A stretch of 64,000 nucleotides of DNA from an uncultured Gemmatimonadales bacterium (GTDB lineage Bacteria; Gemmatimonadota; Gemmatimonadetes; Longimicrobiales; RSA9): positions 631,850-695,849 of the forward strand of contig CAWCUS010000001.1 of assembly GCA_963798845.1 (NCBI GenBank). Reading direction: 5' to 3'. The notes under the pieces were generated by a model, which saw only the letters and a program-made list of their open reading frames with translations, made no database searches and was not told where the DNA came from. Positions 2,933 through 15,759 of this stretch are shown here, piece after piece. Every line of letters begins with the position of its first letter. Position 1 is the stretch's first letter. The position numbers were made by a program, and so were the translations under genes.

Positions 2933-5900
2933 CTAGCCTGCCACCACCCGCACCGCCCGCAGTGCGGCGCCGCCCCCCACGACCTCTCCGCTCCCCTGGA
3001 CGTAGGCGCCGTCAGGACTGAGCTCCCACACCGCCTCATCGTGAAGGACGCCATCCAGAATGGCGCGCAGCCGCTCGCACAGCTCCGCTCTCCGTACCGG
3101 CACGCCCACCTCGACGCGACGCGACAGGTTCCGCGGCCGCCAGTCGGCGGAGCCGATGAAGTATTCGGGCTCCCCCCCATTGGAGAACTCGAAAATGCGA
3201 GCGTGCTGGAGGAGCCGTCCCAGCAGGCTGACGATCCGGATGTTCTCCGAAAGCCCCGGCACACCGGGGCGCAGCGCGCAGATTTCGCGCACCGCGAGCT
3301 CCACCTGCACGCCGGCCTGGGAGGCCTCGTACAGCTTCGAGATCATGCGACGGTCGGCAAGGCCGTTCAGCTGGCCGCGCAGGCCGGCCGGACGCCCCGC
3401 CTTCGCGTGCTCGATCTCGCGGTCGATGAGCTGGAGGAACCGCTGGCGCATGTTGAAGGGCGAGACGAGCAGCTGGTCGAAGTCGCCCGTGGCGGAATAG
3501 CCGGTGAGGATGTTGAAGACCCCCTGCAGCTCCTCGCCGATGCCCTGGTCCGCCGTGAGGAGCGCCACGTCGGTGTACGTCCTCGCCGTGGCCGCGTTCA
3601 GGTTCCCCGTGCCGATGTAGCTGTAGCGGACCAGCCGCTCCCCTTCCCTGCGCACGACCAGCCCGGCCTTCGCGTGCACCTTGTACTTGAGCGGGCTGAA
3701 GACCACGTGGATCCCCGCCGCCGACAGCGACTTGGCCCACGCGATGTTCTGCTGCTCGTCGAAGCTGGCCTTGATCTCGATCAGGGCCACGGCGTCCTTG
3801 CCCAGCTCCCTCGCCCTGGACAGCGACTGCACGATCTCGGACGATGTGTCGGTGCGGTAGAGCGTAACCTTGAGCGCGACCACGTCCGGATCCTCCGCGG
3901 CCTCCCGGATGAAGCGCTCGGCGCTCGAGTTGAAGTCGTCGTGCGGGAAGTACACCAGCCGATCCGCCTCCGCGAGCAGGTCGAACACCGGCCGCCCCGG
4001 GTCGAGCGGCTTCGACCGCTTCAAGGGCGGGAAGCGGGCCTCGCCCTCCACGTCGAGGTCGGCGATCTCCTCCAGCGCCGCCAGGTCGATGAGCCCGTCC
4101 ACGACGTACACATCCTGAGGACCGAGCCACCACGATTCGGCGGGTGACTCGTAGCGCAGCTCGTTCACGATCATCTGGCGGAGTGGACGGGGCATGCGCG
4201 CGTCCACTTCCAGGCGCACGGGGGAGCGGAACGGGCGACGCGCCACGTCCTCCTCCACCGCCTGCAGCACGTCGCCTACCAGGGTCTCTTCGAGCTGGGT
4301 GCGGGCGCTGCGCGTCACGCGGAAGAGGTGTGCGCTCTGGATGGTGAGCCCCGAGTAGAGCTCAGGCAGGCGCGCCACCAGCAGATCCTCCAGCGGCACC
4401 AGGCGGCGTCCGTCTTCGAGCGGGAGGAAACGGGGAAGCTCTCCCGGTAGCTCGACGGCCGTGAAGTGGGCCCGGTCGGACGCAGGCAGCCGCACCACCG
4501 CGCCCACGGCCGGGCGCAGGTTCCGCATGTGCGGGAACGGGTGGCTGGCATCGGCGGCCATGGGCGTGAGCACGACCTCGGCGTCGGCGGCGTACCGCTC
4601 CAGCAGGTAGGCGCGCTCGCCGTCGTCCAGCTCGCGCCAGCGCAGGATCCGCACGCCGCGCTCCGCAAGCGCAGGAAGTAGCCTTCGGCGCAGCAGCCGC
4701 TGCGCGCGGGCGGCCACCTGTCGCGACCGGACCCCGATCAGGTCGAGCTGCTCCTGCGCCGTGAGCCCGTCCATGGTCCGGCGCTGGCCTGGCGCGGCCG
4801 CCTCTTCCTTGAACCCGGCCACCCGGGTCATGAAGAAGTCGTCCTGACGCGTGCCGAACATGGACAGGAAGCGGACCCTCTCCATGAGCGGGGGCTCCTC
4901 CGACTCGGCGAACACCAGGATCCGCTCGTCGAATCCGATCCGGCTCAGCTCCGCGTTGAGAAGGTGCTCCGGCGGAACGTCCTTCCCCGGCGCATACTCG
5001 GGCAAAGGCATCGGCGGCAGCGCCAGCTCGAGCGCTTCCGGCCCCGCGTCGGCCTCTCCGAGCTCCGCCGCCTCTTCGGCGCTCCCCAGGTCCGAGCGCG
5101 CGGCCACCTCGAACGCCGCCAGGGTGCGCGGCTCCCGCAGCGCGCCGCCACCCACCGCTTCCAGCGCTTCGGCAAGCGGCACCCAGACCATCCGCTCGTC
5201 CGTGTCGTCGGGCTGAACCTCGTCCGTGAGCCACACCTCGAGCGCCGGGCGCCCGGGGCCCCCGGGATTCGTGCCGAGCAGCCGCACGCGCGCCCCCGTC
5301 CGCCCCAGCTCCCGCGACACCAGCCGGCGCGCCCCCGCCTCGCCGCTCCCATCGCCGCACGGCACCCGCAGCCCATCCGGCACCCGGCGCAGCGCGACGC
5401 GCCCCATCGCGTACGCGATCACGGCCAGCTCTCTCGCGGCACGCACCTCCCGCTCCAGCGCCTCCACCTCCGCGTCCTCGAGCAGCTCCCGCGCCCTCGT
5501 GGCCGGGTCAGACAGGGTGATGCGGACGCCGGGCTCCTTCTCCAGCGACGCGACCAGCCCGTCCACCTCCGCGTCCTCTCCCGTTGTGAGGGCGAGCTCC
5601 CACAGCGTTCCCGCGAGCTCGTTCCGGCGGACCGTGAGCGTATCGTACGAGAGCACGAGCTCCCGCCCCTCTTCCCCTTCTTCGCCGGCGGTCAGCTCGA
5701 CGTGGCGGAGGCGGCAGAGCGTCTCCACCTCGAACGCCGGCTCGAGCCGCGCCGGGTCAATGAGGCCGCGCAGGAGCTCGGCGGCTGCCGAGTCGCCGTG
5801 GAAGACGCTCTCCGGCTCGCCCGGGCCGACTTCGGACTCCTCCACCCGCGCCGGACCCTCCCCCTCGCCGGTGCTCCGGATGTCGACGCGCAGCGCGCGC

Positions 5901-6100
5901 CCGCCGTCGGCGCGGTAGCGGAGCCGCACGGCGGCGGGCTTGAGGCCCAGCTCCCCGCCCGGCGTGTCGTAGTAGACGTCTCGGAAAACCTCGATGGACC
6001 GCCTCTCGCTGCGTGCGGCCATCGCGAGCGGCGCCCGGGCCAGGCGGTCGAGGAGATCGCCGCTCGGGACCTCCAGCCGGATCGTGCGCGTGCCGCCCAT
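2933..6100 (-). CDS. ppk: Polyphosphate kinase 1 with a ~375-aa N-terminal extension (CYTH-like domain plus degenerate Nudix-like segment)
   Basis: PPK1 core is recognisable from about aa 378 (LNAELSRIGFDERILVFAESEEPPLMERVRFLSMFGTRQDDFFMTRVAGFK ... HAKAGLVVRREGERLVRYSYIGTGNLN ... IGSADWRPRNLSRRVEV). The N-terminus has CYTH-like strands (FRDVYYDTPGGELGL..VRLRYR..LRVDIRS..VEESEV). I place the start at ATG 6100, which overlaps the upstream TGA (TGATG); the tool ORF extends to 6343. Confidence 0.9.
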   Translation of the reverse strand: MGGTRTIRLEVPSGDLLDRLARAPLAMAARSERRSIEVFRDVYYDTPGGELGLKPAAVRLRYRADGGRALRVDIRSTGEGEGPARVEESEVGPGEPESVFHGDSAAAELLRGLIDPARLEPAFEVETLCRLRHVELTAGEEGEEGRELVLSYDTLTVRRNELAGTLWELALTTGEDAEVDGLVASLEKEPGVRITLSDPATRARELLEDAEVEALEREVRAARELAVIAYAMGRVALRRVPDGLRVPCGDGSGEAGARRLVSRELGRTGARVRLLGTNPGGPGRPALEVWLTDEVQPDDTDERMVWVPLAEALEAVGGGALREPRTLAAFEVAARSDLGSAEEAAELGEADAGPEALELALPPMPLPEYAPGKDVPPEHLLNAELSRIGFDERILVFAESEEPPLMERVRFLSMFGTRQDDFFMTRVAGFKEEAAAPGQRRTMDGLTAQEQLDLIGVRSRQVAARAQRLLRRRLLPALAERGVRILRWRELDDGERAYLLERYAADAEVVLTPMAADASHPFPHMRNLRPAVGAVVRLPASDRAHFTAVELPGELPRFLPLEDGRRLVPLEDLLVARLPELYSGLTIQSAHLFRVTRSARTQLEETLVGDVLQAVEEDVARRPFRSPVRLEVDARMPRPLRQMIVNELRYESPAESWWLGPQDVYVVDGLIDLAALEEIADLDVEGEARFPPLKRSKPLDPGRPVFDLLAEADRLVYFPHDDFNSSAERFIREAAEDPDVVALKVTLYRTDTSSEIVQSLSRARELGKDAVALIEIKASFDEQQNIAWAKSLSAAGIHVVFSPLKYKVHAKAGLVVRREGERLVRYSYIGTGNLNAATARTYTDVALLTADQGIGEELQGVFNILTGYSATGDFDQLLVSPFNMRQRFLQLIDREIEHAKAGRPAGLRGQLNGLADRRMISKLYEASQAGVQVELAVREICALRPGVPGLSENIRIVSLLGRLLQHARIFEFSNGGEPEYFIGSADWRPRNLSRRVEVGVPVRRAELCERLRAILDGVLHDEAVWELSPDGAYVQGSGEVVGGGAALRAVRVVAG

Positions 6101-8694
6101 CAGAACGGCATCCCCAGTCCGAGGTAGACGCGGTCCTCTTCGCCCCTCGCCCACACGGCGCTCACCGCAGTGCCGAGCGTCTCGAAATAGACCCCCGCGC
6201 CGCGGCCCAGGTGCCACCCGCCCGGAGACGCACCATCCACGTATACGCGCCCCGCATCCGCCAGGCCGATCACGCCGAGACGCCCCTTCGTCAGCCACAG
6301 GTCGGCCCGGAACAGCGGGATCCGGAGCTCCGCGCCGGCCCACGTGGCCGCCTCCCCGGCGAAGCGCTCCCAGCGATAGCCCCGTACGGTGAGCCGCCCG
6401 CCCAGCCGAGCGGCCGCGTGGAACGGGAAGTCGCCCCAGGCCCGGCTCGCGCCGCCGCGCACCGCGAGCACCGGGCTGGCTCCATCATCCAGCGCGATGG
6501 GCAGAGGCAGGTACGCCGTCGCTGCCACGTCGGCGCTCGCGTGAGGCCCGAAGCGGGGAGCGGCGGCGGGATAGGCGTCCGCATCCACGGCCACGCTGAA
6601 GCCGTGGGTCGGCACGGCCGGGTTGTCCACCCGCCGGAACGACAACCGGCTCCGGACTCCCACCTCGGTGAGCGCGCGGGGCACCGGATCGAGCCTCACG
6701 GCCGGGGCCGCGGAGCCCCCGTCGGACAGCGTGTAGCGCGCGGTGGGGCCGATGTAGGCCTCGACGGAGGGCGTCTCCACCCCGAGCGTCGCCTGGATCT
6801 CCATGCGGTCCTGTCGAACGATCCCGGATCCCGCCGATGCCGGCGCTTCGGAGCTGTTGCCGTATCCGTAGAAGCGTGTGGCCTGGAGCTCGGTCGCCTC
6901 CGCCCTCAGACGCCCGAAGGCCGGGCTGTTCTCCAGGTGCCACACGGCGTCGGCGCGCGCGCCGAAATCCCCCGACCCCATGCCGTACAGCAACCGCAGC
7001 GTGAAGCGGGAAGCGAACGGGTCCCGCCGGAAGCCGTACGTCGTCCACGTCGGGCCGCCGCCCACGACCACGCCTTCCGCCGCGCGGTAGTCCGCCTCGG
7101 GGGTGAACCACGCGACACTGCTGCCCGAGTGCCGGACACGGTCGTTCCCGGTCTCTTTCGCGAACCAGGAGCTCGTGGAAGCCGCGGGCGGGCCGTAAGG
7201 CCTCCGGTCCACGCTCGTCCGCGGGCCCGCCACCACCACGTCCTGTCCACCGGCCGCGTACAGGTACGTGGGGCCGCCGCTCCCCGCATCGTAGAGCGTA
7301 TCGGCGCCGCCCCCCGCCACGACCCGGACCGCGATCCGCTCCGCTCCCGTGCCGCGGACCACCGCCACGTCATCGCCGCCGTGCAGGTCCAGCAGAACCT
7401 CGTGGGTCTCGGCCGGGACGAACACGCGGTGGTACCACGGCACGGCGCCATGGTAGAGCGTGACCTCGAGTGCGCCGCCGTCCCGCCGCAGCAGCTCCGC
7501 ATGCTCCGGCGCATCGGTCGCGTCGATCCTCGCGGCTCCGGCGAGGGCGCGGTAGAAGCGGGCCGAGACGTCCTGGAGGTGGTCGCGGCGCCAGGCCAGG
7601 ACGTGCAGAAGCGTGTCCGCCTGCTCCCGCGGCACTTCCGGCGGCAGCCCTTCGAGCGCCCCGCGGAGCACATCGTCGGTGAGCCCGGCCTGCACGGACG
7701 CCGTGACCGCTTCCCACGCCGCGCGATCCAGCCCCGCCAGGAGTCGCTGGCTGAGCTCCCGATCGTGCCAGAGCAGCCCCTCGATGGAGTGGAACTCGTT
7801 CTTCCACACGGCCAGCTTCGGGAAGAACTCCGCATCGACGAGGCGGGCGAGCACGCCGTCCGCGCTCATCAGCGCCCAGTCCCGGTCGCGGGCGATCGGG
7901 CGCCACCGCGCGCCCCACGCCGCCGGCTCCCTCGCCCACCGCCACTGGTCCCCGCCCCGGTCCGTGTCATTCACCAGGAAATCCACCAGCCGCGACGCCA
8001 GGTACTCCCTCGCGTCCACCCGGTCGTTCGGAGTCTCCTCCAGCAGCTCGAGCAGCCGCTCCGTTCCCACGATCCGGGAGTAGCCGCGCCAGCCGGGCGT
8101 ACCACCCTCCCCCTCGTTCGGCCGCTCCACCAGCAGCCCGAGCATCCCCGCGAACGCGTCCCGGAAACGGCCGAGCCGGGGATCGTCCGGCATCACCCGA
8201 AGCACGCCGGGGACCGCCAGCAGCCCGAGCGCGGCGTTGAGCCGGGGCACCACCAGCCCGGCGAACGGGTGGAAGATGCTGACGTGGTCCTTGAGCAGTG
8301 CCTGGAACGGCGTCCCCACCAGATCCTCGGGGAGGACCTGCACGGGGAACTTGTCCGTGCTCCGGAAGATGAACTCACGGCCGTCCGCCGACTCGAGGTG
8401 GAGCGTCCGGCTCTGGTTGCCTCCCTGCTCGACGGGCACCAGTCCGCCGGCGAAGGTGTCCAGCGCCAGGACCGGTACGCTCACCGAGCGCGTCCACTCC
8501 GCCCGCCGGTTGTCCCCGTTGAAGAAGCGACGGAACGGCCCGGCCGCGTAGCCCGGTTCCGGTGCCACCACTACCGTGTCCCGCTGCGGGGAGGAGCGCG
8601 GGTCGGGCTCGAGCGCTTGCGCGCCGGCGGCAGCGGCGGCCCCGAGCGCCGCGGCCCCCGCAGCGACGGGGACGAACGGGTTCCAGCCCGTCAC
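6100..8694 (-). CDS. Outer-membrane protein with a large unassigned N-terminal domain and a C-terminal Omp85/bacterial-surface-antigen-type beta-barrel
   Basis: GTG at 8694 overlaps the upstream stop (GTGA). Signal peptide (VPVAAGAAALGAAAAAGAQA). The C-terminal ~330 aa have an alternating beta-strand pattern and end in the OMP signature ...VYLGLGMPF (terminal Phe). The tool ORF (to 10038) runs on in frame through the DUF4956 gene region and is not believed. Confidence 0.7.
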   Translation of the reverse strand: MTGWNPFVPVAAGAAALGAAAAAGAQALEPDPRSSPQRDTVVVAPEPGYAAGPFRRFFNGDNRRAEWTRSVSVPVLALDTFAGGLVPVEQGGNQSRTLHLESADGREFIFRSTDKFPVQVLPEDLVGTPFQALLKDHVSIFHPFAGLVVPRLNAALGLLAVPGVLRVMPDDPRLGRFRDAFAGMLGLLVERPNEGEGGTPGWRGYSRIVGTERLLELLEETPNDRVDAREYLASRLVDFLVNDTDRGGDQWRWAREPAAWGARWRPIARDRDWALMSADGVLARLVDAEFFPKLAVWKNEFHSIEGLLWHDRELSQRLLAGLDRAAWEAVTASVQAGLTDDVLRGALEGLPPEVPREQADTLLHVLAWRRDHLQDVSARFYRALAGAARIDATDAPEHAELLRRDGGALEVTLYHGAVPWYHRVFVPAETHEVLLDLHGGDDVAVVRGTGAERIAVRVVAGGGADTLYDAGSGGPTYLYAAGGQDVVVAGPRTSVDRRPYGPPAASTSSWFAKETGNDRVRHSGSSVAWFTPEADYRAAEGVVVGGGPTWTTYGFRRDPFASRFTLRLLYGMGSGDFGARADAVWHLENSPAFGRLRAEATELQATRFYGYGNSSEAPASAGSGIVRQDRMEIQATLGVETPSVEAYIGPTARYTLSDGGSAAPAVRLDPVPRALTEVGVRSRLSFRRVDNPAVPTHGFSVAVDADAYPAAAPRFGPHASADVAATAYLPLPIALDDGASPVLAVRGGASRAWGDFPFHAAARLGGRLTVRGYRWERFAGEAATWAGAELRIPLFRADLWLTKGRLGVIGLADAGRVYVDGASPGGWHLGRGAGVYFETLGTAVSAVWARGEEDRVYLGLGMPF

Positions 8695-9770
8695 TCGTCG
8701 TCCTCCGCGGGGTGGTACGGCACGTACTCGGCCGCGGCGACGGTGGGCGACCACCGGTCCTCCAGCTCCCCGAGAATGTCCACCGGCGTCTTCTTCTTTC
8801 GCAACCGCACCGCCGCCTCGAGCGTGTAGACGCCGTTCCGCCCGCGCGGCGGCTCGCGGAAGAGCCACTCCTTGCCGATCTCGCTCAGCACCACCTCTGC
8901 GACCTGGCGGGCGGAGCGGGGCTCCGTGGTGTGGATCAGCAGGATACCGTCCGTCTTCATCTGCTCCGCGAGCTCCTCCAACCGATGCCGCACTCGCTCC
9001 TGCCCCTGCCGCGTCTGGGCGATCATCATGCTCGTGTCGCCCACGGACAGCAGCTCCGCGTCCTCGTCCACGTACAGCTCCAGGTCGTACTTCCAGAAGA
9101 CCAGCACCATCACGGCGAAAGTGAGCGAGAGCACGAACGCGATGTCCGCCGCCTGCACTCCGCACGACAGTCCGATCGCCATCACCAGAAACACGTGCAC
9201 CGCGTCCTTCGGGTCCTTCACGGTGGTCCGGAAGCGGACGGCCGCGACGATCCCGGCAAGCCCGAACGCCAGCGCCACGCTGTTCTTCACGATCATCACC
9301 GTGCCCGTCACGACCGGCGGCAGCATGATGAGCGTGTGCACGAGCGAGCGGTCGTAGCGGAGACGACGGGCGAACGTGTAGACCCACGCGATCGGCAGCA
9401 CCAGGAGCAGCGTGGCCACGATGGCCAGCGCAGTGGTGAGCACCCGCGCCGACTCCGTCGTGGCCGGGGTCACCAGCAGGCTTCTCGGACTCACCGCCCC
9501 CGCGTCCGCCACGTTCCCGCCCAGCGGAGAAACCAGCGCTTTCTGCACGCCGGGCACGAAGTAGACGCCCAGGAGCCCGATCCCCACCAGGACGGCGTAG
9601 TAGAACAGCAGCCGGAAGATCGGGATCCTGCGGGAATGCTCGGCGTAGCGACGACGATCCTTGTGCCGCCCCCCGCGCCGGCTCCCGGGCGGCGCCACCC
9701 CGGCGCCCTCGCCGCCGTTGCGTCGATTCTCCTCCCGCTCCGCCACGCGTTCCGCTCCTGTCCGGGCCAT
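8691..9770 (-). CDS. DUF4956-family inner-membrane protein with a cytoplasmic C-terminal domain
   Basis: Several TM helices and the DUF4956-typical core (GLAGIVAAVRFRTTVKDPKDAVHVFLVMAIGLSCG). ATG at 9770 is preceded by GAGG about 9 nt upstream. An alternative start lies at 9791. Confidence 0.75.
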   Translation of the reverse strand: MARTGAERVAEREENRRNGGEGAGVAPPGSRRGGRHKDRRRYAEHSRRIPIFRLLFYYAVLVGIGLLGVYFVPGVQKALVSPLGGNVADAGAVSPRSLLVTPATTESARVLTTALAIVATLLLVLPIAWVYTFARRLRYDRSLVHTLIMLPPVVTGTVMIVKNSVALAFGLAGIVAAVRFRTTVKDPKDAVHVFLVMAIGLSCGVQAADIAFVLSLTFAVMVLVFWKYDLELYVDEDAELLSVGDTSMMIAQTRQGQERVRHRLEELAEQMKTDGILLIHTTEPRSARQVAEVVLSEIGKEWLFREPPRGRNGVYTLEAAVRLRKKKTPVDILGELEDRWSPTVAAAEYVPYHPAEDDE

Positions 9771-9896
9771 TTTCGCACCTCGAAGGGGCAAGAACCGCGC
9801 CTCTCGCGGATGCGGAACGGCCCCGCCCCGCGAGCGCGGGACGGGGCCGTCCGTGCGTCCGTCCGCGGCGGGTGCCGCGGAGCGGAACGGTTGGGG

Positions 9897-11258
9897 TCAG
9901 CTCTCGTAGCCGGGGTTCTGCGTCAGGTTCGGCGCCACGTCCAGCTCCGACACCGGGATCGGCCAGAGCCCCTTGTAGGGCGCCCACCGGCTCCCGAACG
10001 CCGCAGCACCCTCGCCCAGCCGGACCAGGTCGAACCACCGGTCCCCTTCGAACGCCAGCTCCAGCCGGCGCTCCAGGTAGATGGCGTCCAGCACATCCTG
10101 CTGGCTGTTGTTCAGGTCCGCGGCCAGGTCGTACGTCGACACGCCCGCCCGCTCGCGGATCATGTTCAGGTACTCCACCGCCGTGTCCAGGTCGTTCTGC
10201 TGCGCGGCCGCTTCGGCCACGATCAGCAGGATCTCACCATAGCGGATCACGTTGAAGTCCTCGGTCCCCGTGGTGGTCGGGAACTTCACCACCTGGATGC
10301 CGTCGGGCCGCGTGCCGCTGAAGTCAGCCGCGAAGCGCTGGTCGTTGGCCTGGTCGAAGAGGTTGTAGATCTCCTCCGTCGCCCCGATCTCGAACCGGCC
10401 CGCGTACTGGTAGTAGAAGCCGTAGTTGTTGTAGTCGACCGCCGTGAAGACGATCTTGAAGATGTCCTCGGGCGAGCCCTGGTCGGCCCAGATCGAGCCG
10501 TAGTCCGACGCCAGTCCGTAGTCACCCGAGTTCACCACGCTCATGGCGGCGGCCTGCGCCTGCGACCACTTCTGCTCGTACAGGTACGTCTTCGCGAGCA
10601 GCGCATCCGTGAAGCCCGGGGTCATGAAGGTCCGGTCGGAGTTGTCGATCCCGGCCGACATCATGAGCGATTTGGCCTGCGTCAGGTCGGACTCGACCTG
10701 GGCGTACACCTCGGCCGCCGTGGCGCGCGTCACCTGCGACGCCTCCTCCAGTGACGCGGGCGGCGTCAGCACCAGCGGCACCCCGCCGTACGCCCGCACC
10801 AGCGAGAAGTAGTTGAGCGCACGGAGCGCGTACGCCTGGCCCAGCAGCCAGTCCTGGTCGGACTGACCGATGTTGTCCAGCTCCGGCACTTTCTGAATGA
10901 GCTGGTTCACCCGGTCGATCCCGCGGTAGGCCGCGTTCCAGACCCCCTCGATGGAGTAGTTGGCCGCCGTCGTGTTCAGCAGGTCGGCCTCGCCGAAGTT
11001 GCCGAACGTGCCGGTGTGCTCGGCGTTGTCCGACATGTTCTCCGACCACAGGACGTAGTCGCCGCCGTAGTAGTCGCCGCTCTGGAGCGCGCTGTACCCG
11101 CCCATGAGCGCCGCCGTGGCGGACTCCATGTCCTTGATCGCCACTTCGGACGCGATGGCGTCCTGGGGCAGCACGTCCAGTGGCCCCTGGTCACACGCCG
11201 CGACGCCTGCCAGGATCAGCAGCGCGGGCGCCATTCGGAATAGTCTCTTCATGGTCAT
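9897..11258 (-). CDS. SusD/RagB-family nutrient-binding outer-membrane lipoprotein
   Basis: Lipobox (LILAGVAAC). SusD-like helical/TPR pattern, a C-terminal ...RRLELAFEGDRWFDLVR motif, and a position immediately downstream of a SusC gene. Confidence 0.9.
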   Translation of the reverse strand: MTMKRLFRMAPALLILAGVAACDQGPLDVLPQDAIASEVAIKDMESATAALMGGYSALQSGDYYGGDYVLWSENMSDNAEHTGTFGNFGEADLLNTTAANYSIEGVWNAAYRGIDRVNQLIQKVPELDNIGQSDQDWLLGQAYALRALNYFSLVRAYGGVPLVLTPPASLEEASQVTRATAAEVYAQVESDLTQAKSLMMSAGIDNSDRTFMTPGFTDALLAKTYLYEQKWSQAQAAAMSVVNSGDYGLASDYGSIWADQGSPEDIFKIVFTAVDYNNYGFYYQYAGRFEIGATEEIYNLFDQANDQRFAADFSGTRPDGIQVVKFPTTTGTEDFNVIRYGEILLIVAEAAAQQNDLDTAVEYLNMIRERAGVSTYDLAADLNNSQQDVLDAIYLERRLELAFEGDRWFDLVRLGEGAAAFGSRWAPYKGLWPIPVSELDVAPNLTQNPGYES

Positions 11259-11270
11259 TTCCTTTCCGCG

Positions 11271-14200
11271 CTACCAGTTCCCCTGGAACCCGATCGTGAA
11301 CGTCCGGGCCAGCGGGTAGGCGTAGAAGTCCGTGCCCAGCGCGCCGGCGCCGGCGCCCGAGCCTGCGAAGTTGTTTTCCGGAGCGTAGCCCGAGTAGTCG
11401 GTCCACGTCTTCAGGTTCTTGCCCGAGACGTAGAACCGGCCGTTGCTCGCCCGGATCAGGTTGTTGATGGCGTCGGGCACCTTCAAACCCACCGTGACCT
11501 CGCCCAGGCGCACGTACGACGCGTCCTCGAGATACCGGCTGGACTCCACCCACGCGCCCGTGGAGCCGAACCAGCTCGGGCTCGGCGCCGTGCCGTTCGG
11601 GTTGTCCGGCGTCCAGTAGTTCTCCACGTGGACCTTGAACTTGTTGTCCAGGAAGTAGCCGCCGTCGTCGGAGTACTCGCGCATGGCGTTGAAGATCTTG
11701 GCGCCCTGGCTGAAGTCGACGAACGCCATGAGATCGAACGCGCCGAACGAGAACGTGTTCCGGATCCCGCCGTAGTAGTCCGGGTGCGGGCTGCCCACGA
11801 TCATGCGGTCGTCGGAGCCCGGGAACGTGGTCCAGACGATGTCGCCGTTCGAGTCGTACTGGATGTTCCCGTCGGCGTCCAGGTCCACGTACTTCGCCAC
11901 GCCCGTGGCCGCGTCGACGCCGATGTACTTGGGCGTGAAGAACACGCCCAGGGGCTGCCCCTCTTCCACCCAGTTGACGAACCCGCCCGGCGCGTAGAAC
12001 GGCTCGTGGTCGTACAGCGCCTTCACCTTGTTCCGGTTGCGCGTGATGTTGAACTCGGTGGTCCACTCGAACCCGTTGGCGTGGGACCGGCGGATGTTCA
12101 CCGTGTTCACGCTCAGCTCCACGCCCTTGTTCTGGATGCCGCCCACGTTGGCCAGCACGGAAGTGAAGCCGCTGGTGGCGGTCACCGGCCGGTTGAGGAG
12201 CAGATCGTTCGTGTCCTTCTGGTAGAGCTCCACGACGAAGCCGAGGCGGTCACTGAAGAGGCTCAGATCCAGGCCGAGGTTCTTCTCGGTCGTGGTCTCC
12301 CACTTCAGGTCCGGGTTGGCCAGGTTGGTCGGCGCCGTGCCGGGGATCGAGCCGTAGTTGGCCGAACCGTAGAGGCCGAGGTACTGGAAGTTGCCGATGG
12401 CCTCGTTCCCGGTCTCGCCCCAGCTGGCACGCAGCTTCATGTCGCTGATGAAGCCCAGGCCCTGCATGAAGGGCTCGCTGCTCACCACCCACGCCGCCGA
12501 CGCGGCGCGGAACACGCCGAACTTGTTGTTCTCGCCGAACCGCGACGAGCCGTCCGCGCGGATGCTGGCGTTGAGCACGTAACGGTCGTTGAACACGTAG
12601 TTCGCGCGCCCGAAGAACGACATCAGGTTGTGCGACCAGCCCGTGCCATCGTAGCCGGCCACGTCCGCACCGTTCCCGGGCCAGTTCAGGTCGGGGCTGG
12701 TGAAGCCCTCCGTCCGGACGAAGCTCTCCTCGCGCTTGTCCCGCTCCGTGGAGGCGCCCGCCGTCACCGACAGCTCGTTCACGCCGAAGTACTTGCTGCC
12801 CGTCAGGTAGCCCTCGAGCAGGTACTTGTTGCCCGACGAGTTCGCCACGCGCGACACGCCGCCCACGCCCGCCCCGTACGTCAGCGGGGTCAGCGGCGAG
12901 TTCCAGCGGTGCTCGCGCAGGTTCAGGATGTCGAACCCGGCCCGCCCCGTGGCGGTCAGCCACGGCAAGAAGGCGTAGTTGGCCGTGATGTTCCCGAAGG
13001 TCCGGTTCGTCAGGGCGTTGGTGAAGTCCTCCGTGCCCACGGCCACCGGGTTGGCGTACGACGCCGCGTCCGACCACGATCCGTCCGGGTTCTTCACCGG
13101 CACCCACGGCTCGTTGGCGATGGCGTTGGTCACCGGGCTGTCGATCGAGTTGTCCGACTCGATCCGGTCGTTGCTCTCGCGGGAAAGCGACAGCGACGTG
13201 CTGAAGCTGAGCTTGTCCGACGCCTGGAAGTCCAGGTTCGCCCGACCGGATGCGCGGTTGTACCCCGATCCGATGATGATCCCCGTCTGGTCGAAGTACG
13301 TTCCGGAGATGTAGTACTTGAACGCCTCGGTCCCGCCGCTCACCGCCAGCTGCGTGTTGCTGATGGGGGCGGTCCGCATCACGGCGTCCTGCCAGTCCGT
13401 GTTGATGCTCGGGTCCACCCCGAACGAGTCCAGCTCATCCTGGACGTCCTGCTCGGTGTAGCCGTCGTAGCGCATCCCGTCCGAGAAGTACTGGATCCAC
13501 TCTGCCGTGTTGAGCATCGGGATCTTCTTCTGCGCCTTCTGCCAGCCACCCGACAGGTTCACCGTCACCTGGGGACGGCCCGCCGTCTGGACGCCCCGCT
13601 TGGTCGTGATCATGATCACGCCGTTCGAGCCGCGGGAGCCGTAGATCGCTGCCGCGGCCGCGTCCTTCAGGATGTCGATGGAATCGATGTCATCCGGGTT
13701 CAGCCCCGTGATGGACGACAGGTCCTGGCCGCCCAGCCCCAGCTGGCCGAAGTCCTCGCGGAAGATCGGCACCCCGTCCACCACGTACAGCGGCTGGTTG
13801 CCCGCCGAGATCGAAGAGCTGCCCCGCACGCGCACCGTGATGCCGTTGCCGGGATTGCCGGCGTTCTGGATCACCTGCACGCCCGCGGCCTTCCCCTGCA
13901 GCGCCGCGTCCAGGCTCGCCACCACCCGGTTCTGGACGTCCTGCGTCTGGACCGTGCTGATGGCGCTGCTCACCTCCCGGCGCGTCTGCTGTGCGTAGCC
14001 GGTGGCGACCAGCTCCTCCAGCTCGATCGCGGTCACCCCCAGCTGGAAGTCCTCGGTGGCCGTCCCGCCCGCGGGAACGGTGATCGTGCGCGCCTGGGCG
14101 GAGTACCCGATGTACTCCACGCGCACTTCCGCCCGCCCGCTCGGCACCCTCGTCAGAAGGTACCGTCCGTCGTTGTTCGTGATCGTCCCGATTCCTGTGC

Positions 14201-14366
14201 CTCGGATCATCACCTGCGCGCCGGAGATCGCCTCTCCGGTCTGCGCATCGGTGACGATGCCACGGATCGACCCGGGCTCCTGCGCCGCAAGGCTCCGTGG
14301 AGCGCCGAACGCGGTCAGCAGAAATGCTGCCGCCAGCGACGCGAAGGCTGCGCACGATGTTTTCAT
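11271..14366 (-). CDS. SusC/RagA-type TonB-dependent outer-membrane receptor
   Basis: Signal peptide, then a CarboxypepD_reg-like N-terminal domain (IRGIVTDAQTGEAISGAQVMIRGTGIGTITNNDGRYLL). Plug motifs (IDSIDILKDAAAAAIYGSRGSNGVIMITTKRG) and a long barrel ending ...FTIGFQGNW. ATG at 14366 is preceded by AGGAGG. Confidence 0.93.
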   Translation of the reverse strand: MKTSCAAFASLAAAFLLTAFGAPRSLAAQEPGSIRGIVTDAQTGEAISGAQVMIRGTGIGTITNNDGRYLLTRVPSGRAEVRVEYIGYSAQARTITVPAGGTATEDFQLGVTAIELEELVATGYAQQTRREVSSAISTVQTQDVQNRVVASLDAALQGKAAGVQVIQNAGNPGNGITVRVRGSSSISAGNQPLYVVDGVPIFREDFGQLGLGGQDLSSITGLNPDDIDSIDILKDAAAAAIYGSRGSNGVIMITTKRGVQTAGRPQVTVNLSGGWQKAQKKIPMLNTAEWIQYFSDGMRYDGYTEQDVQDELDSFGVDPSINTDWQDAVMRTAPISNTQLAVSGGTEAFKYYISGTYFDQTGIIIGSGYNRASGRANLDFQASDKLSFSTSLSLSRESNDRIESDNSIDSPVTNAIANEPWVPVKNPDGSWSDAASYANPVAVGTEDFTNALTNRTFGNITANYAFLPWLTATGRAGFDILNLREHRWNSPLTPLTYGAGVGGVSRVANSSGNKYLLEGYLTGSKYFGVNELSVTAGASTERDKREESFVRTEGFTSPDLNWPGNGADVAGYDGTGWSHNLMSFFGRANYVFNDRYVLNASIRADGSSRFGENNKFGVFRAASAAWVVSSEPFMQGLGFISDMKLRASWGETGNEAIGNFQYLGLYGSANYGSIPGTAPTNLANPDLKWETTTEKNLGLDLSLFSDRLGFVVELYQKDTNDLLLNRPVTATSGFTSVLANVGGIQNKGVELSVNTVNIRRSHANGFEWTTEFNITRNRNKVKALYDHEPFYAPGGFVNWVEEGQPLGVFFTPKYIGVDAATGVAKYVDLDADGNIQYDSNGDIVWTTFPGSDDRMIVGSPHPDYYGGIRNTFSFGAFDLMAFVDFSQGAKIFNAMREYSDDGGYFLDNKFKVHVENYWTPDNPNGTAPSPSWFGSTGAWVESSRYLEDASYVRLGEVTVGLKVPDAINNLIRASNGRFYVSGKNLKTWTDYSGYAPENNFAGSGAGAGALGTDFYAYPLARTFTIGFQGNW

Positions 14367-14429
14367 GCGGAGTGCCTCCTGGGTGGTTTTGTGGAAGATA
14401 GGGTGCGATGCGGATAGGGCATCGTCCGC

Positions 14430-14459
14430 AAGGTACTTGTACATGAGGAACGCTGTCAA
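14430..14459 (-). promoter_or_regulatory. Candidate sigma70-type promoter for SusC/SusD locus 1 (TTGACA-N18-TACCTT)
   Basis: On the minus strand, TTGACA (14459..14454), an 18-nt spacer, then TACCTT (14435..14430), about 65 nt upstream of the SusC ATG. SusC locus 2 shows the same architecture. Confidence 0.45.
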
Positions 14460-14604
14460 ATACCGACTTGTGACGCTTCCGCGCGCCACCGCGACAGGGC
14501 TGCCGGCCGGAGCCCGTCACACGATCCGCGCCGACCGCCTTGCCCCGCGGGCTCCGGCCGCCCAGCTTCCTCCCCTCCTGCGACCCTGACTCCGGTACCC
14601 CTCG

Positions 14605-15759
14605 TTGACGGTGCTCCTCTTCCTCCTCGGCCTCGTCCTCCTCGTGGCCGGCGCCGAGCTGCTGGTCCGCGGCGCTTCCGGCCTCGCCGCCGTGGCCGGC
14701 GTCGCCCCGCTCGTGGTGGGGCTCACCGTCGTCGCCTTCGGCACGAGCGCACCCGAGCTCGCCGTCACCCTCGCCGCCACCTTCCGCGGCGAGCCGGACC
14801 TCGCCCTCGGGAACGTGGTCGGGAGCAACATCGCCAACATCCTGCTGATCCTGGGGCTGTCCGCGCTGGTGGCCCCGCTGGTGGTTCAGCGCAGCCTGGT
14901 GCGGGTGGAGGTTCCGCTCATGGTCGGCGTGTCGCTGGCCACCTTCCTCATGGGTGCGAACGGCCACGTCGGCCGCATCGAAGGGCTGCTGCTCCTGCTC
15001 GCGGGCGTGACGTACACGACCGTCCTCATCCGGCAGGCCGTGGGCGCGGCGGAGCGGCCCTCGGCGAGCCGGAGCCCGGCCCGGGTAGTGGCGGGGAGTG
15101 CCATCCCCGGGTCCGGATCGGCACCCGTGGCGTCTCGCGACCCCGGCCATCCGCGCGGCATCGGACGCGGAGGGAGGCCGCCCGTCCGCCGTATGATGGC
15201 CGCGAACGTGGCCCTGGTGGTGGGCGGTCTCGGACTGCTGGTCCTCGGCTCGCACTGGCTGGTGGACAGCGCGCGCGCGTTCGCGGCGGCGCTCGGGGTC
15301 TCGGAGCTCGTCATCGGGCTCACCATCGTCGCCGTGGGCACGTCGCTCCCCGAGCTGGCGACCTCGCTGGTGGCCGCCCTCCGCGGCGCCCGCGACATCG
15401 CGGTCGGCAACATCGTGGGCAGCAACCTCTTCAACCTCCTCTTCATCCTGGGAGCGGCGGCGGCGCTGTCGCCAGCGGGGGTGCCCGTGCCGCGGGCGGC
15501 GCGCGGGTTCGACCTGCCCGTGATGGTCGTGGTGGCGCTGGCCTGCCTCCCCATCTTCTTCACGGGCCACCGGATCGGGCGACGGGAAGGGGCGCTCTTC
15601 CTCGGCTATTTCGTGGCGTACGTGGCTTACGTGCTGCTGGCCGCGCGCAGCCATGAAGCGCTGGCGCCGCTGCGCATGGCCATGATCTTCTTCGCGCTCC
15701 CGCTGACCGCGGTCACGCTCGCGCTGGTGGTGCTGCGGGAGCTGCGGTTCAGGGACTGA
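14605..15759 (+). CDS. CaCA-family cation/Ca2+ exchanger (YrbG-like)
   Basis: Two alpha-repeat motifs (GTSAPELAV.. and GTSLPELATS..) in a polytopic membrane protein, with an unusually long Pro/Arg/Gly-rich central loop. Non-ATG (TTG) start according to the track. Confidence 0.85.
   Translation: MTVLLFLLGLVLLVAGAELLVRGASGLAAVAGVAPLVVGLTVVAFGTSAPELAVTLAATFRGEPDLALGNVVGSNIANILLILGLSALVAPLVVQRSLVRVEVPLMVGVSLATFLMGANGHVGRIEGLLLLLAGVTYTTVLIRQAVGAAERPSASRSPARVVAGSAIPGSGSAPVASRDPGHPRGIGRGGRPPVRRMMAANVALVVGGLGLLVLGSHWLVDSARAFAAALGVSELVIGLTIVAVGTSLPELATSLVAALRGARDIAVGNIVGSNLFNLLFILGAAAALSPAGVPVPRAARGFDLPVMVVVALACLPIFFTGHRIGRREGALFLGYFVAYVAYVLLAARSHEALAPLRMAMIFFALPLTAVTLALVVLRELRFRD

Follow-up and report, generated by a model that had tools for sequence, protein, structure and literature searches.

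A polyphosphate kinase 1 of Gemmatimonadota with CYTH and Nudix-fold domains lacking catalytic motifs, and its shared operon with the gene for a DUF4956 membrane protein

Introduction

Polyphosphate kinase 1 (PPK1) is the main bacterial synthase of polyphosphate (polyP), and is generally portrayed as having four domains and no accessory ones. Here we analyze a PPK1 gene of an uncultured Gemmatimonadales bacterium, a member of the Gemmatimonadota, whose type organism was obtained as a polyP-accumulating isolate. The gene lies on the minus strand at positions 2933-6100, stop codon included, of a 64,000-nucleotide stretch of contig CAWCUS010000001.1 (hereafter, the window), and its open reading frame (ORF) translates to a protein of 1055 residues in which a divergent CYTH (triphosphate-tunnel) domain and a Nudix-fold domain precede the PPK1 core. 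The hallmark catalytic motifs of both classes are missing from this N-terminal extension, and the gene stands last in an operon that also encodes a DUF4956 membrane protein and an Omp85-family protein.

The canonical form of the enzyme, Escherichia coli Ppk, is about 690 residues long and begins at the PP_kinase_N domain. It shares all four of its domains with residues 376-1036 of the window protein, which adds ~375 residues at the N-terminus and is encoded with DUF4956 and Omp85-family genes rather than with ppx. The usual neighbors of ppk1 are genes for CHAD, Nudix/MutT and PPX proteins (PMC8003754; PMC12995831). In the ppk-CHAD-Nudix operons of Streptomyces and the ppk1-mutT1 pair of mycobacteria, the Nudix proteins are separate, catalytically competent and equipped with an intact Nudix box, whereas the window protein has a boxless Nudix fold fused in cis. 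Nudix folds have been kept as binding modules after loss of the catalytic glutamates in the effector domain of NrtR, the NUDT9H domain of TRPM2 and the C-terminal domain of MutY; the middle domain of the window protein may be likened to these by retention of the fold.

The solved CYTH protein closest to the extension is E. coli YgiF, a CYTH-CHAD protein (PDB 5a60). Both proteins have DxY, RxR and the first glutamate of ExE, and in both a long helix leads to a second polyP-related module. The partner is CHAD in YgiF but a Nudix fold and PPK1 in the window protein, which has also lost ExExK and the second glutamate of ExE. In its motif pattern the window family resembles the AtTTM1/2-type cluster of CYTH proteins, in which ExExK and the ExE pair are lost while xRxR and DxY are kept (PMC8233210). 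Those plant proteins, unlike the window protein, have a P-loop kinase domain as their fusion partner.

The VTC complex offers a likeness at the level of the whole system: in a polyP-making system, a domain of the triphosphate-tunnel (TTM) fold is tied to a polytopic membrane protein, either through association of their genes or as parts of one protein. The TTM domains of Vtc2 and Vtc3 are non-catalytic. In yeast VTC, the tunnel of the catalytic TTM domain, that of Vtc4, has its exit placed on a polyP channel across the membrane, and Vtc3 contributes another TTM domain to the assembly (PMC9911596). The window system differs in that its polymerase is PPK1, its TTM domain is without catalytic motifs, an SPX domain is absent, and DUF4956 is not detectably similar to the VTC channel. 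In Gram-positive bacteria, DUF4956 genes occur beside genes for a predicted polyphosphate polymerase, CotH and DUF4832, next to pel operons (PMC7112168). These clusters, like the window operon, pair DUF4956 with a polyP polymerase gene, but they belong to a different phylum and include no PPK1, Nudix-fold or Omp85 gene. We take their polymerase to be a VTC/TTM-fold protein.

A literature search of open-access papers, which also covered Gemmatimonas ppk1, returned no description of a CYTH-Nudix-PPK1, CYTH-PPK1 or Nudix-PPK1 fusion. An initial annotation of this DNA, made from the sequence alone, had called the joining of CYTH and Nudix domains to PPK1 unusual and had suggested that it could serve priming, capping or regulation. 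The fusion is real, but it is not a one-off: the architecture is already implicit in the databases as a family of ~300 clusters.

Results

The canonical PPK1 core, with its N, middle, C1 and C2 domains, spans residues ~376-1036 (2993-4975; coordinates in the window are on the minus strand unless the plus strand is named). Pfam families PF13089, PF02503, PF17941 and PF13090 match in this order over residues 381-1035 with E values from 1e-23 to 1e-57, the PPK1 equivalog model TIGR03705 scores 625.3 bits against a cut-off of 465.85, and the sequence contains both KVHAK, the histidine motif, and QHARIF. On this sequence evidence, the gene product is predicted to be a working PPK1, an ATP-dependent polyP synthase presumably acting through a phospho-histidine intermediate, behind a non-catalytic accessory module. 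It is a bona fide PPK1 but, strictly speaking, no member of the catalytic CYTH or Nudix classes, whose hallmark motifs were looked for and are absent. Between the extension and the core lies an acidic, proline-rich linker (residues ~346-375; 4976-5065), which is weakly conserved and variable in length in the family alignment and has low pLDDT at the end of the structural model.

The initial annotation had delimited the extension as 5096-6100, corresponding to residues 1-335. The start holds: the ORF begins with an ATG at 6100 whose A is also the last base of the preceding gene's TGA (TGATG). The other end lies further on, at about residue 375 (nucleotide 4976). Each of the peptides quoted in that annotation is present in the translation (IRLEVP, FRDVYYDTPGGEL, VRLRYR, LRVDIRS, VEESEV, LVLSYDTLTV, LWELALT and RELGRTGA).

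Relatives of the window protein were recovered through an exhaustive profile search of representatives, which returned 309 clusters at E ≤ 0.001 and 61 at E ≤ 1e-30; a word-indexed homologue search had given two matches with the extension as query and one with a 57-sequence profile. About 30 full-length relatives of 1010-1108 residues, independently called and 30-75% identical in protein sequence, have the same domain order as the window protein and an N-terminus identical in kind. The CYTH/Nudix-fold/PPK1 architecture is carried by nine genome loci (L001-L009), all from metagenome-assembled genomes of Gemmatimonadota. All named members of the family are Gemmatimonadota, and their sole annotation is "polyphosphate kinase" or "polyphosphate kinase 1". 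A Longimicrobiaceae-type subclade (P0132, P0140 and P0143; 927-936 residues) has lost the Nudix-fold domain and kept CYTH-PPK1; P0140 is encoded at 5595-8378 of locus L011 and P0132 at 6001-8811 of locus L013.

Comparison with the closest relative, at L001, gave ratios of nonsynonymous to synonymous substitution (dN/dS) of 0.23 for the CYTH domain, 0.29 for the Nudix fold and 0.12 for the PPK1 core. With dN/dS at 0.23-0.29, the extension is constrained in the PPK1 frame. It is translated and under purifying selection, and its constraint is looser than that of the catalytic core.

As the initial annotation had proposed, the N-terminal domain (residues ~5-195; 5516-6088) is of the CYTH type, although divergent. 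Pfam PF01928 matches the window protein over residues 27-189 (E value 3e-7; 30.8-32.9 bits against a gathering score of 23.2), and 38 of 43 relatives match it individually at E ≤ 0.01. When the family profile was compared with the PDB, the best solved relative was the triphosphatase YgiF (5a60; E value 6e-5). A direct hhalign comparison covered YgiF residues 35-190 with 92% probability (E value 6e-7); two segments of the YgiF sequence used for it are identical to the PDB alignment.

Conservation in the CYTH domain was read from the columns of a 43-sequence alignment, with motif definitions after Vogt et al. (2021; PMC8233210). The substrate-side motifs DxY (D41 98%, Y43 86%) and xRxR (R59 86%, R61 93%) are kept in the family and in the window, and the family has further conserved arginines at R40, R108 (93%), R111, R129 (95%) and R132 (93%). 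The first glutamate of ExE is retained (E168, 74%) and aligns with the ELELE of YgiF; the second is lost, position 170 being variable (T, K, E or R) and alanine in the window (A170). Other conserved acidic positions are E124 (81%), E126 (70%) and D153 (100%). In place of ExExK, the family has R8 (88%)-x-[DE]10 (72%)-V-P12, which in the window reads I-R-L-E-V-P (R8-x-E10-V-P12), and none of 150 family representatives has ExExK within its first 40 residues. The initial annotation had remarked that a canonical ExExK was not obvious, and this is so family-wide. In TTM proteins, ExExK, which also takes part in substrate binding, and ExE coordinate the catalytic metals and are needed for catalysis (PMC8233210). 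Because these motifs bind the two catalytic metals, we infer that canonical TTM hydrolysis has been lost in the CYTH domain, although the activity of AtTTM2, discussed below, leaves doubt.

Two further observations concern this domain. The window sequence has an acidic insert, TAGEEGEEGRE. An adenylyl-cyclase (CyaB/AC-IV) assignment, suggested by the likeness of E-L-A in the window to the ExA of AC-IV, was rejected: members of the family do not conserve the alanine, and they lack the HFxxxxExExK signature.

A long helix (residues ~199-220; 5441-5506) connects the CYTH domain to the middle domain (residues ~222-345; 5066-5437), which has a Nudix fold in prediction. An AlphaFold model built from a 57-sequence alignment reached a pLDDT of 92.1, with a confident fold for residues 186-345; the helix occupies residues 14-35 of this model. 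Foldseek matched the model to 391 PDB chains at E ≤ 0.001. Among the 50 matches listed, all are Nudix enzymes, with a best E value of 1.3e-7, TM scores of 0.46-0.61 and a probability of 1.00. The best structural matches are ADP-ribose pyrophosphatases of Thermus thermophilus and Mycobacterium tuberculosis and the GDP-mannose hydrolase of E. coli. Rv2985, the Nudix enzyme MutT1, whose gene adjoins ppk1 in M. tuberculosis, ranked 49th. Sequence searches with the middle domain of the window protein against Pfam, NCBIfam and the PDB (phmmer and profile) gave nothing significant; Pfam PF00293 was touched by one of 57 relatives (E value 0.068), and hhalign to E. coli MutT returned 1% probability with a sensible helix register. 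The middle domain represents a Nudix-fold family that current Pfam and NCBIfam models overlook.

In the 57-sequence alignment the domain is well conserved at G251/G253 (98%), E254 (82%), R258 (91%), G266 (84%), E288 (91%), W290 (100%), W306 (98%) and [ED]311 (82%). Of the Nudix box, E254 and G266 alone are conserved. In the helix equivalent to REUxEE (positions 259-267), acidic residues reach at most 32%, and the REUxEE motif occurs in none of 150 family representatives. These figures agree with the suggestion of the initial annotation that the segment is probably catalytically dead. That annotation had also seen a degenerate Nudix box here, and it was right about the fold, as the model and the Foldseek matches indicate, but only in part about the motif, to which the resemblance is partly coincidental. 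The spacing that it gave as G-x5-E is G249-x4-E254-x8-R263, and the 'RE' of RELGRTGA, which it compared with the box, is peculiar to the window and unconserved in the family.

The most informative clue to function, the operon context, lies outside the coordinates covered by the initial annotation. The first gene of the operon (8691-9791 as the maximum ORF; the database call is 351 residues) encodes a polytopic membrane protein matched by Pfam PF16316, DUF4956 (48.8 bits against a gathering score of 30.6; E value 9e-13). This DUF4956 protein is 100% identical to P0180. The middle gene (6100-8694) encodes an Omp85-family outer-membrane protein, recognized by NCBIfam NF047779 on its C-terminal ~130 residues (E value 6e-14) and by weak Pfam Omp85/ShlB matches; it begins at a GTG and has a signal-peptide-like N-terminus. 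The junctions overlap on the minus strand, as GTGA at 8691-8694 between the DUF4956 and Omp85-family genes and as TGATG at 6098-6102 between the Omp85-family and PPK1 genes. These overlapping stop and start codons suggest translational coupling within the three-gene operon.

DUF4956 accompanies the family closely. It is encoded upstream on the same strand in the window and in 14 further loci (L001-L009 and L011-L015), and in L010 it is fused to the enzyme. Loci L011-L013 are metagenomic and were picked for divergence or for a missing Nudix domain, while L014 and L015 were reached from two distant DUF4956 orthologues and again show the order DUF4956-Omp85-PPK1. The fusion, P0003 (L010, 2453-6406), is a DUF4956-CYTH-Nudix-PPK1 protein of 1317 residues, found on one contig of 29 kb and another of 10 kb, and its DUF4956 part is joined directly to the CYTH end. 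Among the Nudix-less proteins, P0132 and P0140 have DUF4956 upstream in both loci checked. Because Nudix-less members keep both the CYTH domain and the upstream DUF4956 gene, CYTH and DUF4956 form the constant pairing.

By contrast, what separates DUF4956 from PPK1 differs from locus to locus: the slot may be empty or hold an Omp85-family gene, a 367-385-residue protein without a family, or a beta-propeller-like protein. Omp85-family orthologues fill it in the window, L002, L004, L005, L013, L014 and L015. The beta-propeller-like occupant, in L012 (1738-2697), is a 319-residue SdiA-regulated/beta-propeller protein that is faintly phytase-like, and the proteins without a family are encoded in L011 (4463-5566) and L013 (2131-3288). 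The variable occupants in L011-L013 look like envelope or secreted proteins.

Several features of the operon partners deserve mention. A search of the PDB with the Omp85-family protein found nothing, and its signal-peptide-like N-terminus is followed by ~650 residues without a match in Pfam, NCBIfam or the PDB; this region is conserved at 41-47% identity in L002, L004 and L005. DUF4956 proteins of this clade end in a conserved soluble domain of ~110 residues (in the window protein, residues ~250-366; ~8691-9040) that matches no family or structure and contains the motifs TDGILL[VI]H and AAAEY[VI]P[FY]; the P0003 fusion apparently lacks it. JGI names for DUF4956 orthologues are inconsistent (Hfq, TusA-related and YhiD). 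In L014, the PPK1 gene that follows DUF4956 and Omp85 is split into three short called genes (13687-15212 of a 339-kb contig) with no CYTH part called, a split that may reflect assembly frameshifts or a pseudogene.

Around the operon, a SusD/RagB-family gene (9897-11258) lies directly upstream and is syntenic in L001, L002 and L004; it is probably unrelated to polyP. Downstream, convergent plus-strand genes for an S15 X-Pro dipeptidyl-peptidase (272-2200) and a beta-carbonic anhydrase (within 1579-2919) mark the 3' boundary.

Discussion

The constant operon link with DUF4956 suggests that polyP synthesis in these bacteria is physically coupled to the cell envelope. Specifically, we propose, with about even confidence, that the extension is a non-hydrolytic phosphate- or nucleotide-binding adaptor module that ties PPK1 to DUF4956 at the inner membrane. 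Under this proposal the CYTH/Nudix module would hydrolyze nothing. The CYTH tunnel would hold a phosphate chain, which could be the nascent polyP end or a pyrophosphate or tripolyphosphate primer, and the pseudo-Nudix domain would bind a phosphate-containing ligand or serve as a docking surface. Together the two domains would keep PPK1 at DUF4956; synthesis of polyP would thereby take place at the membrane, and the product would be passed to, or anchored on, an envelope component. Such an arrangement has parallels in VTC, whose TTM domains are seated on the transmembrane channel, and in the bacterial clusters of CotH, polyP polymerase and DUF4956.

A number of observations weigh against an adaptor of this kind. 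AtTTM2, which is without ExExK and ExE, has been reported as a pyrophosphatase (cited in PMC8233210), and loss of these motifs may thus not mean loss of all hydrolysis. The CYTH domain of the window is the most acidic of the 43 aligned, with a net charge of -14 against a median of +3, and it has lost two conserved arginines (R108E and R129C); the argument for polyanion binding is weaker for the window protein because of these features, and the domain may have degenerated further in the window lineage. The sole model that covers the CYTH domain (residues 1-375, from three sequences) reached a pLDDT of 40 and hence demonstrates no closed tunnel. On the side of the membrane partner, the DUF4956 profile detected no VTC subunit and no other solved structure in the PDB, and an NCBIfam search was also empty; by sequence comparison, DUF4956 resembles neither the VTC channel nor any protein of solved structure. 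Finally, adjacency of genes is no proof of physical contact.

Other explanations for the extension begin from the same domains. The CYTH domain could be an active, non-canonical phosphohydrolase (a tripolyphosphatase, pyrophosphatase or exopolyphosphatase), making the protein a bifunctional enzyme that trims, primes or recycles polyP beside the synthase, as an in-cis version of ppk-ppx operons. Pfam and hhalign do assign the domain to the CYTH family, in which most characterized proteins are triphosphatases, and several acidic positions are conserved ([DE]10 72%, E124 81%, E126 70%, D153 100%, E168 74%). The reported pyrophosphatase activity of AtTTM2, which has lost the same two motifs, points the same way (PMC8233210). 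Yet the first glutamate of ExExK has become a conserved arginine and its lysine a proline or alanine, with ExExK in 0 of 150 representatives; the glutamate for the second metal is unconserved; and TTM catalysis needs the ExExK/ExE residues (PMC8233210). We therefore regard a second, hydrolytic activity as rather improbable. We give slightly more credence, while still thinking it unlikely, to an allosteric sensor, in which the pseudo-Nudix domain, possibly with the CYTH domain, binds a small nucleotide signal, for example ADP-ribose, ApnA, (p)ppGpp or ADP/ATP, and switches PPK1 on or off. The link to DUF4956 would then be incidental or secondary, and a sensing role is compatible with the proposed adaptor. 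Degenerate Nudix domains serve as regulators in NrtR and in the NUDT9H domain of TRPM2. The best structural matches are enzymes acting on ADP-ribose and GDP-mannose, Rv2985 is among the Foldseek matches at rank 49, and the conserved G-[ST]-G-E loop, R258, W290 and W306 resemble a ligand pocket minus its catalytic residues. Nudix genes also recur beside ppk1 (PMC8003754; PMC12995831). Against a sensor, the subclade without the Nudix fold keeps both CYTH-PPK1 and the operon, which makes the domain dispensable for the core function, and the ligand cannot be inferred from sequence.

The extension could, in principle, also be an artefact of annotation, with the true start near residue ~376 and the upstream 1.1 kb untranslated or a decayed relic of separate genes. 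The initial annotation had named a downstream start as an outcome that would undo its reading. The window has ~70% G+C, and DNA of this kind yields long spurious ORFs, which occur here in every frame and often overlap; moreover, there is no obvious Shine-Dalgarno sequence upstream of the ATG. However, the ~30 independently called full-length relatives share the conserved N-terminus at 30-75% protein identity, dN/dS in the frame is 0.23-0.29, residues 186-345 are predicted to adopt a confident fold, the Pfam CYTH match is above its cut-off, and the ATG overlaps the upstream stop codon. A mis-called start is effectively refuted, and we consider it extremely improbable.

The adaptor proposal can be extended to the outer membrane. 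The operon of DUF4956, Omp85 and CYTH/Nudix-PPK1 genes might encode a synthase-dependent, trans-envelope apparatus for secretion or surface deposition of polyP, a possibility that we hold to be unlikely but worth stating. The dead CYTH/Nudix module would dock PPK1 onto DUF4956 in the inner membrane, and nascent polyP would leave first through DUF4956 and next through the barrel in the outer membrane, a route with parallels in eukaryotic VTC and in synthase-dependent exopolysaccharide systems. A 2026 preprint describes extracellular polyP in Bacillus and calls the export mechanism unknown (PMC13484657). If the export reading is true, it would be the first defined bacterial route of polyP export, and the function of DUF4956 would extend to the Gram-positive clusters of CotH, polyP polymerase and DUF4956.

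The enzyme described here is a phylum-wide PPK1 variant of Gemmatimonadota, in which CYTH and Nudix domains, normally separate neighbors of ppk, have been captured in cis and apparently stripped of catalysis. Its architecture links PPK1, a TTM-fold domain and the uncharacterized membrane family DUF4956 in one system. The association of CYTH/Nudix-PPK1 with DUF4956 thereby gives a concrete hypothesis for the role of DUF4956 and for how bacteria may position or export polyP.

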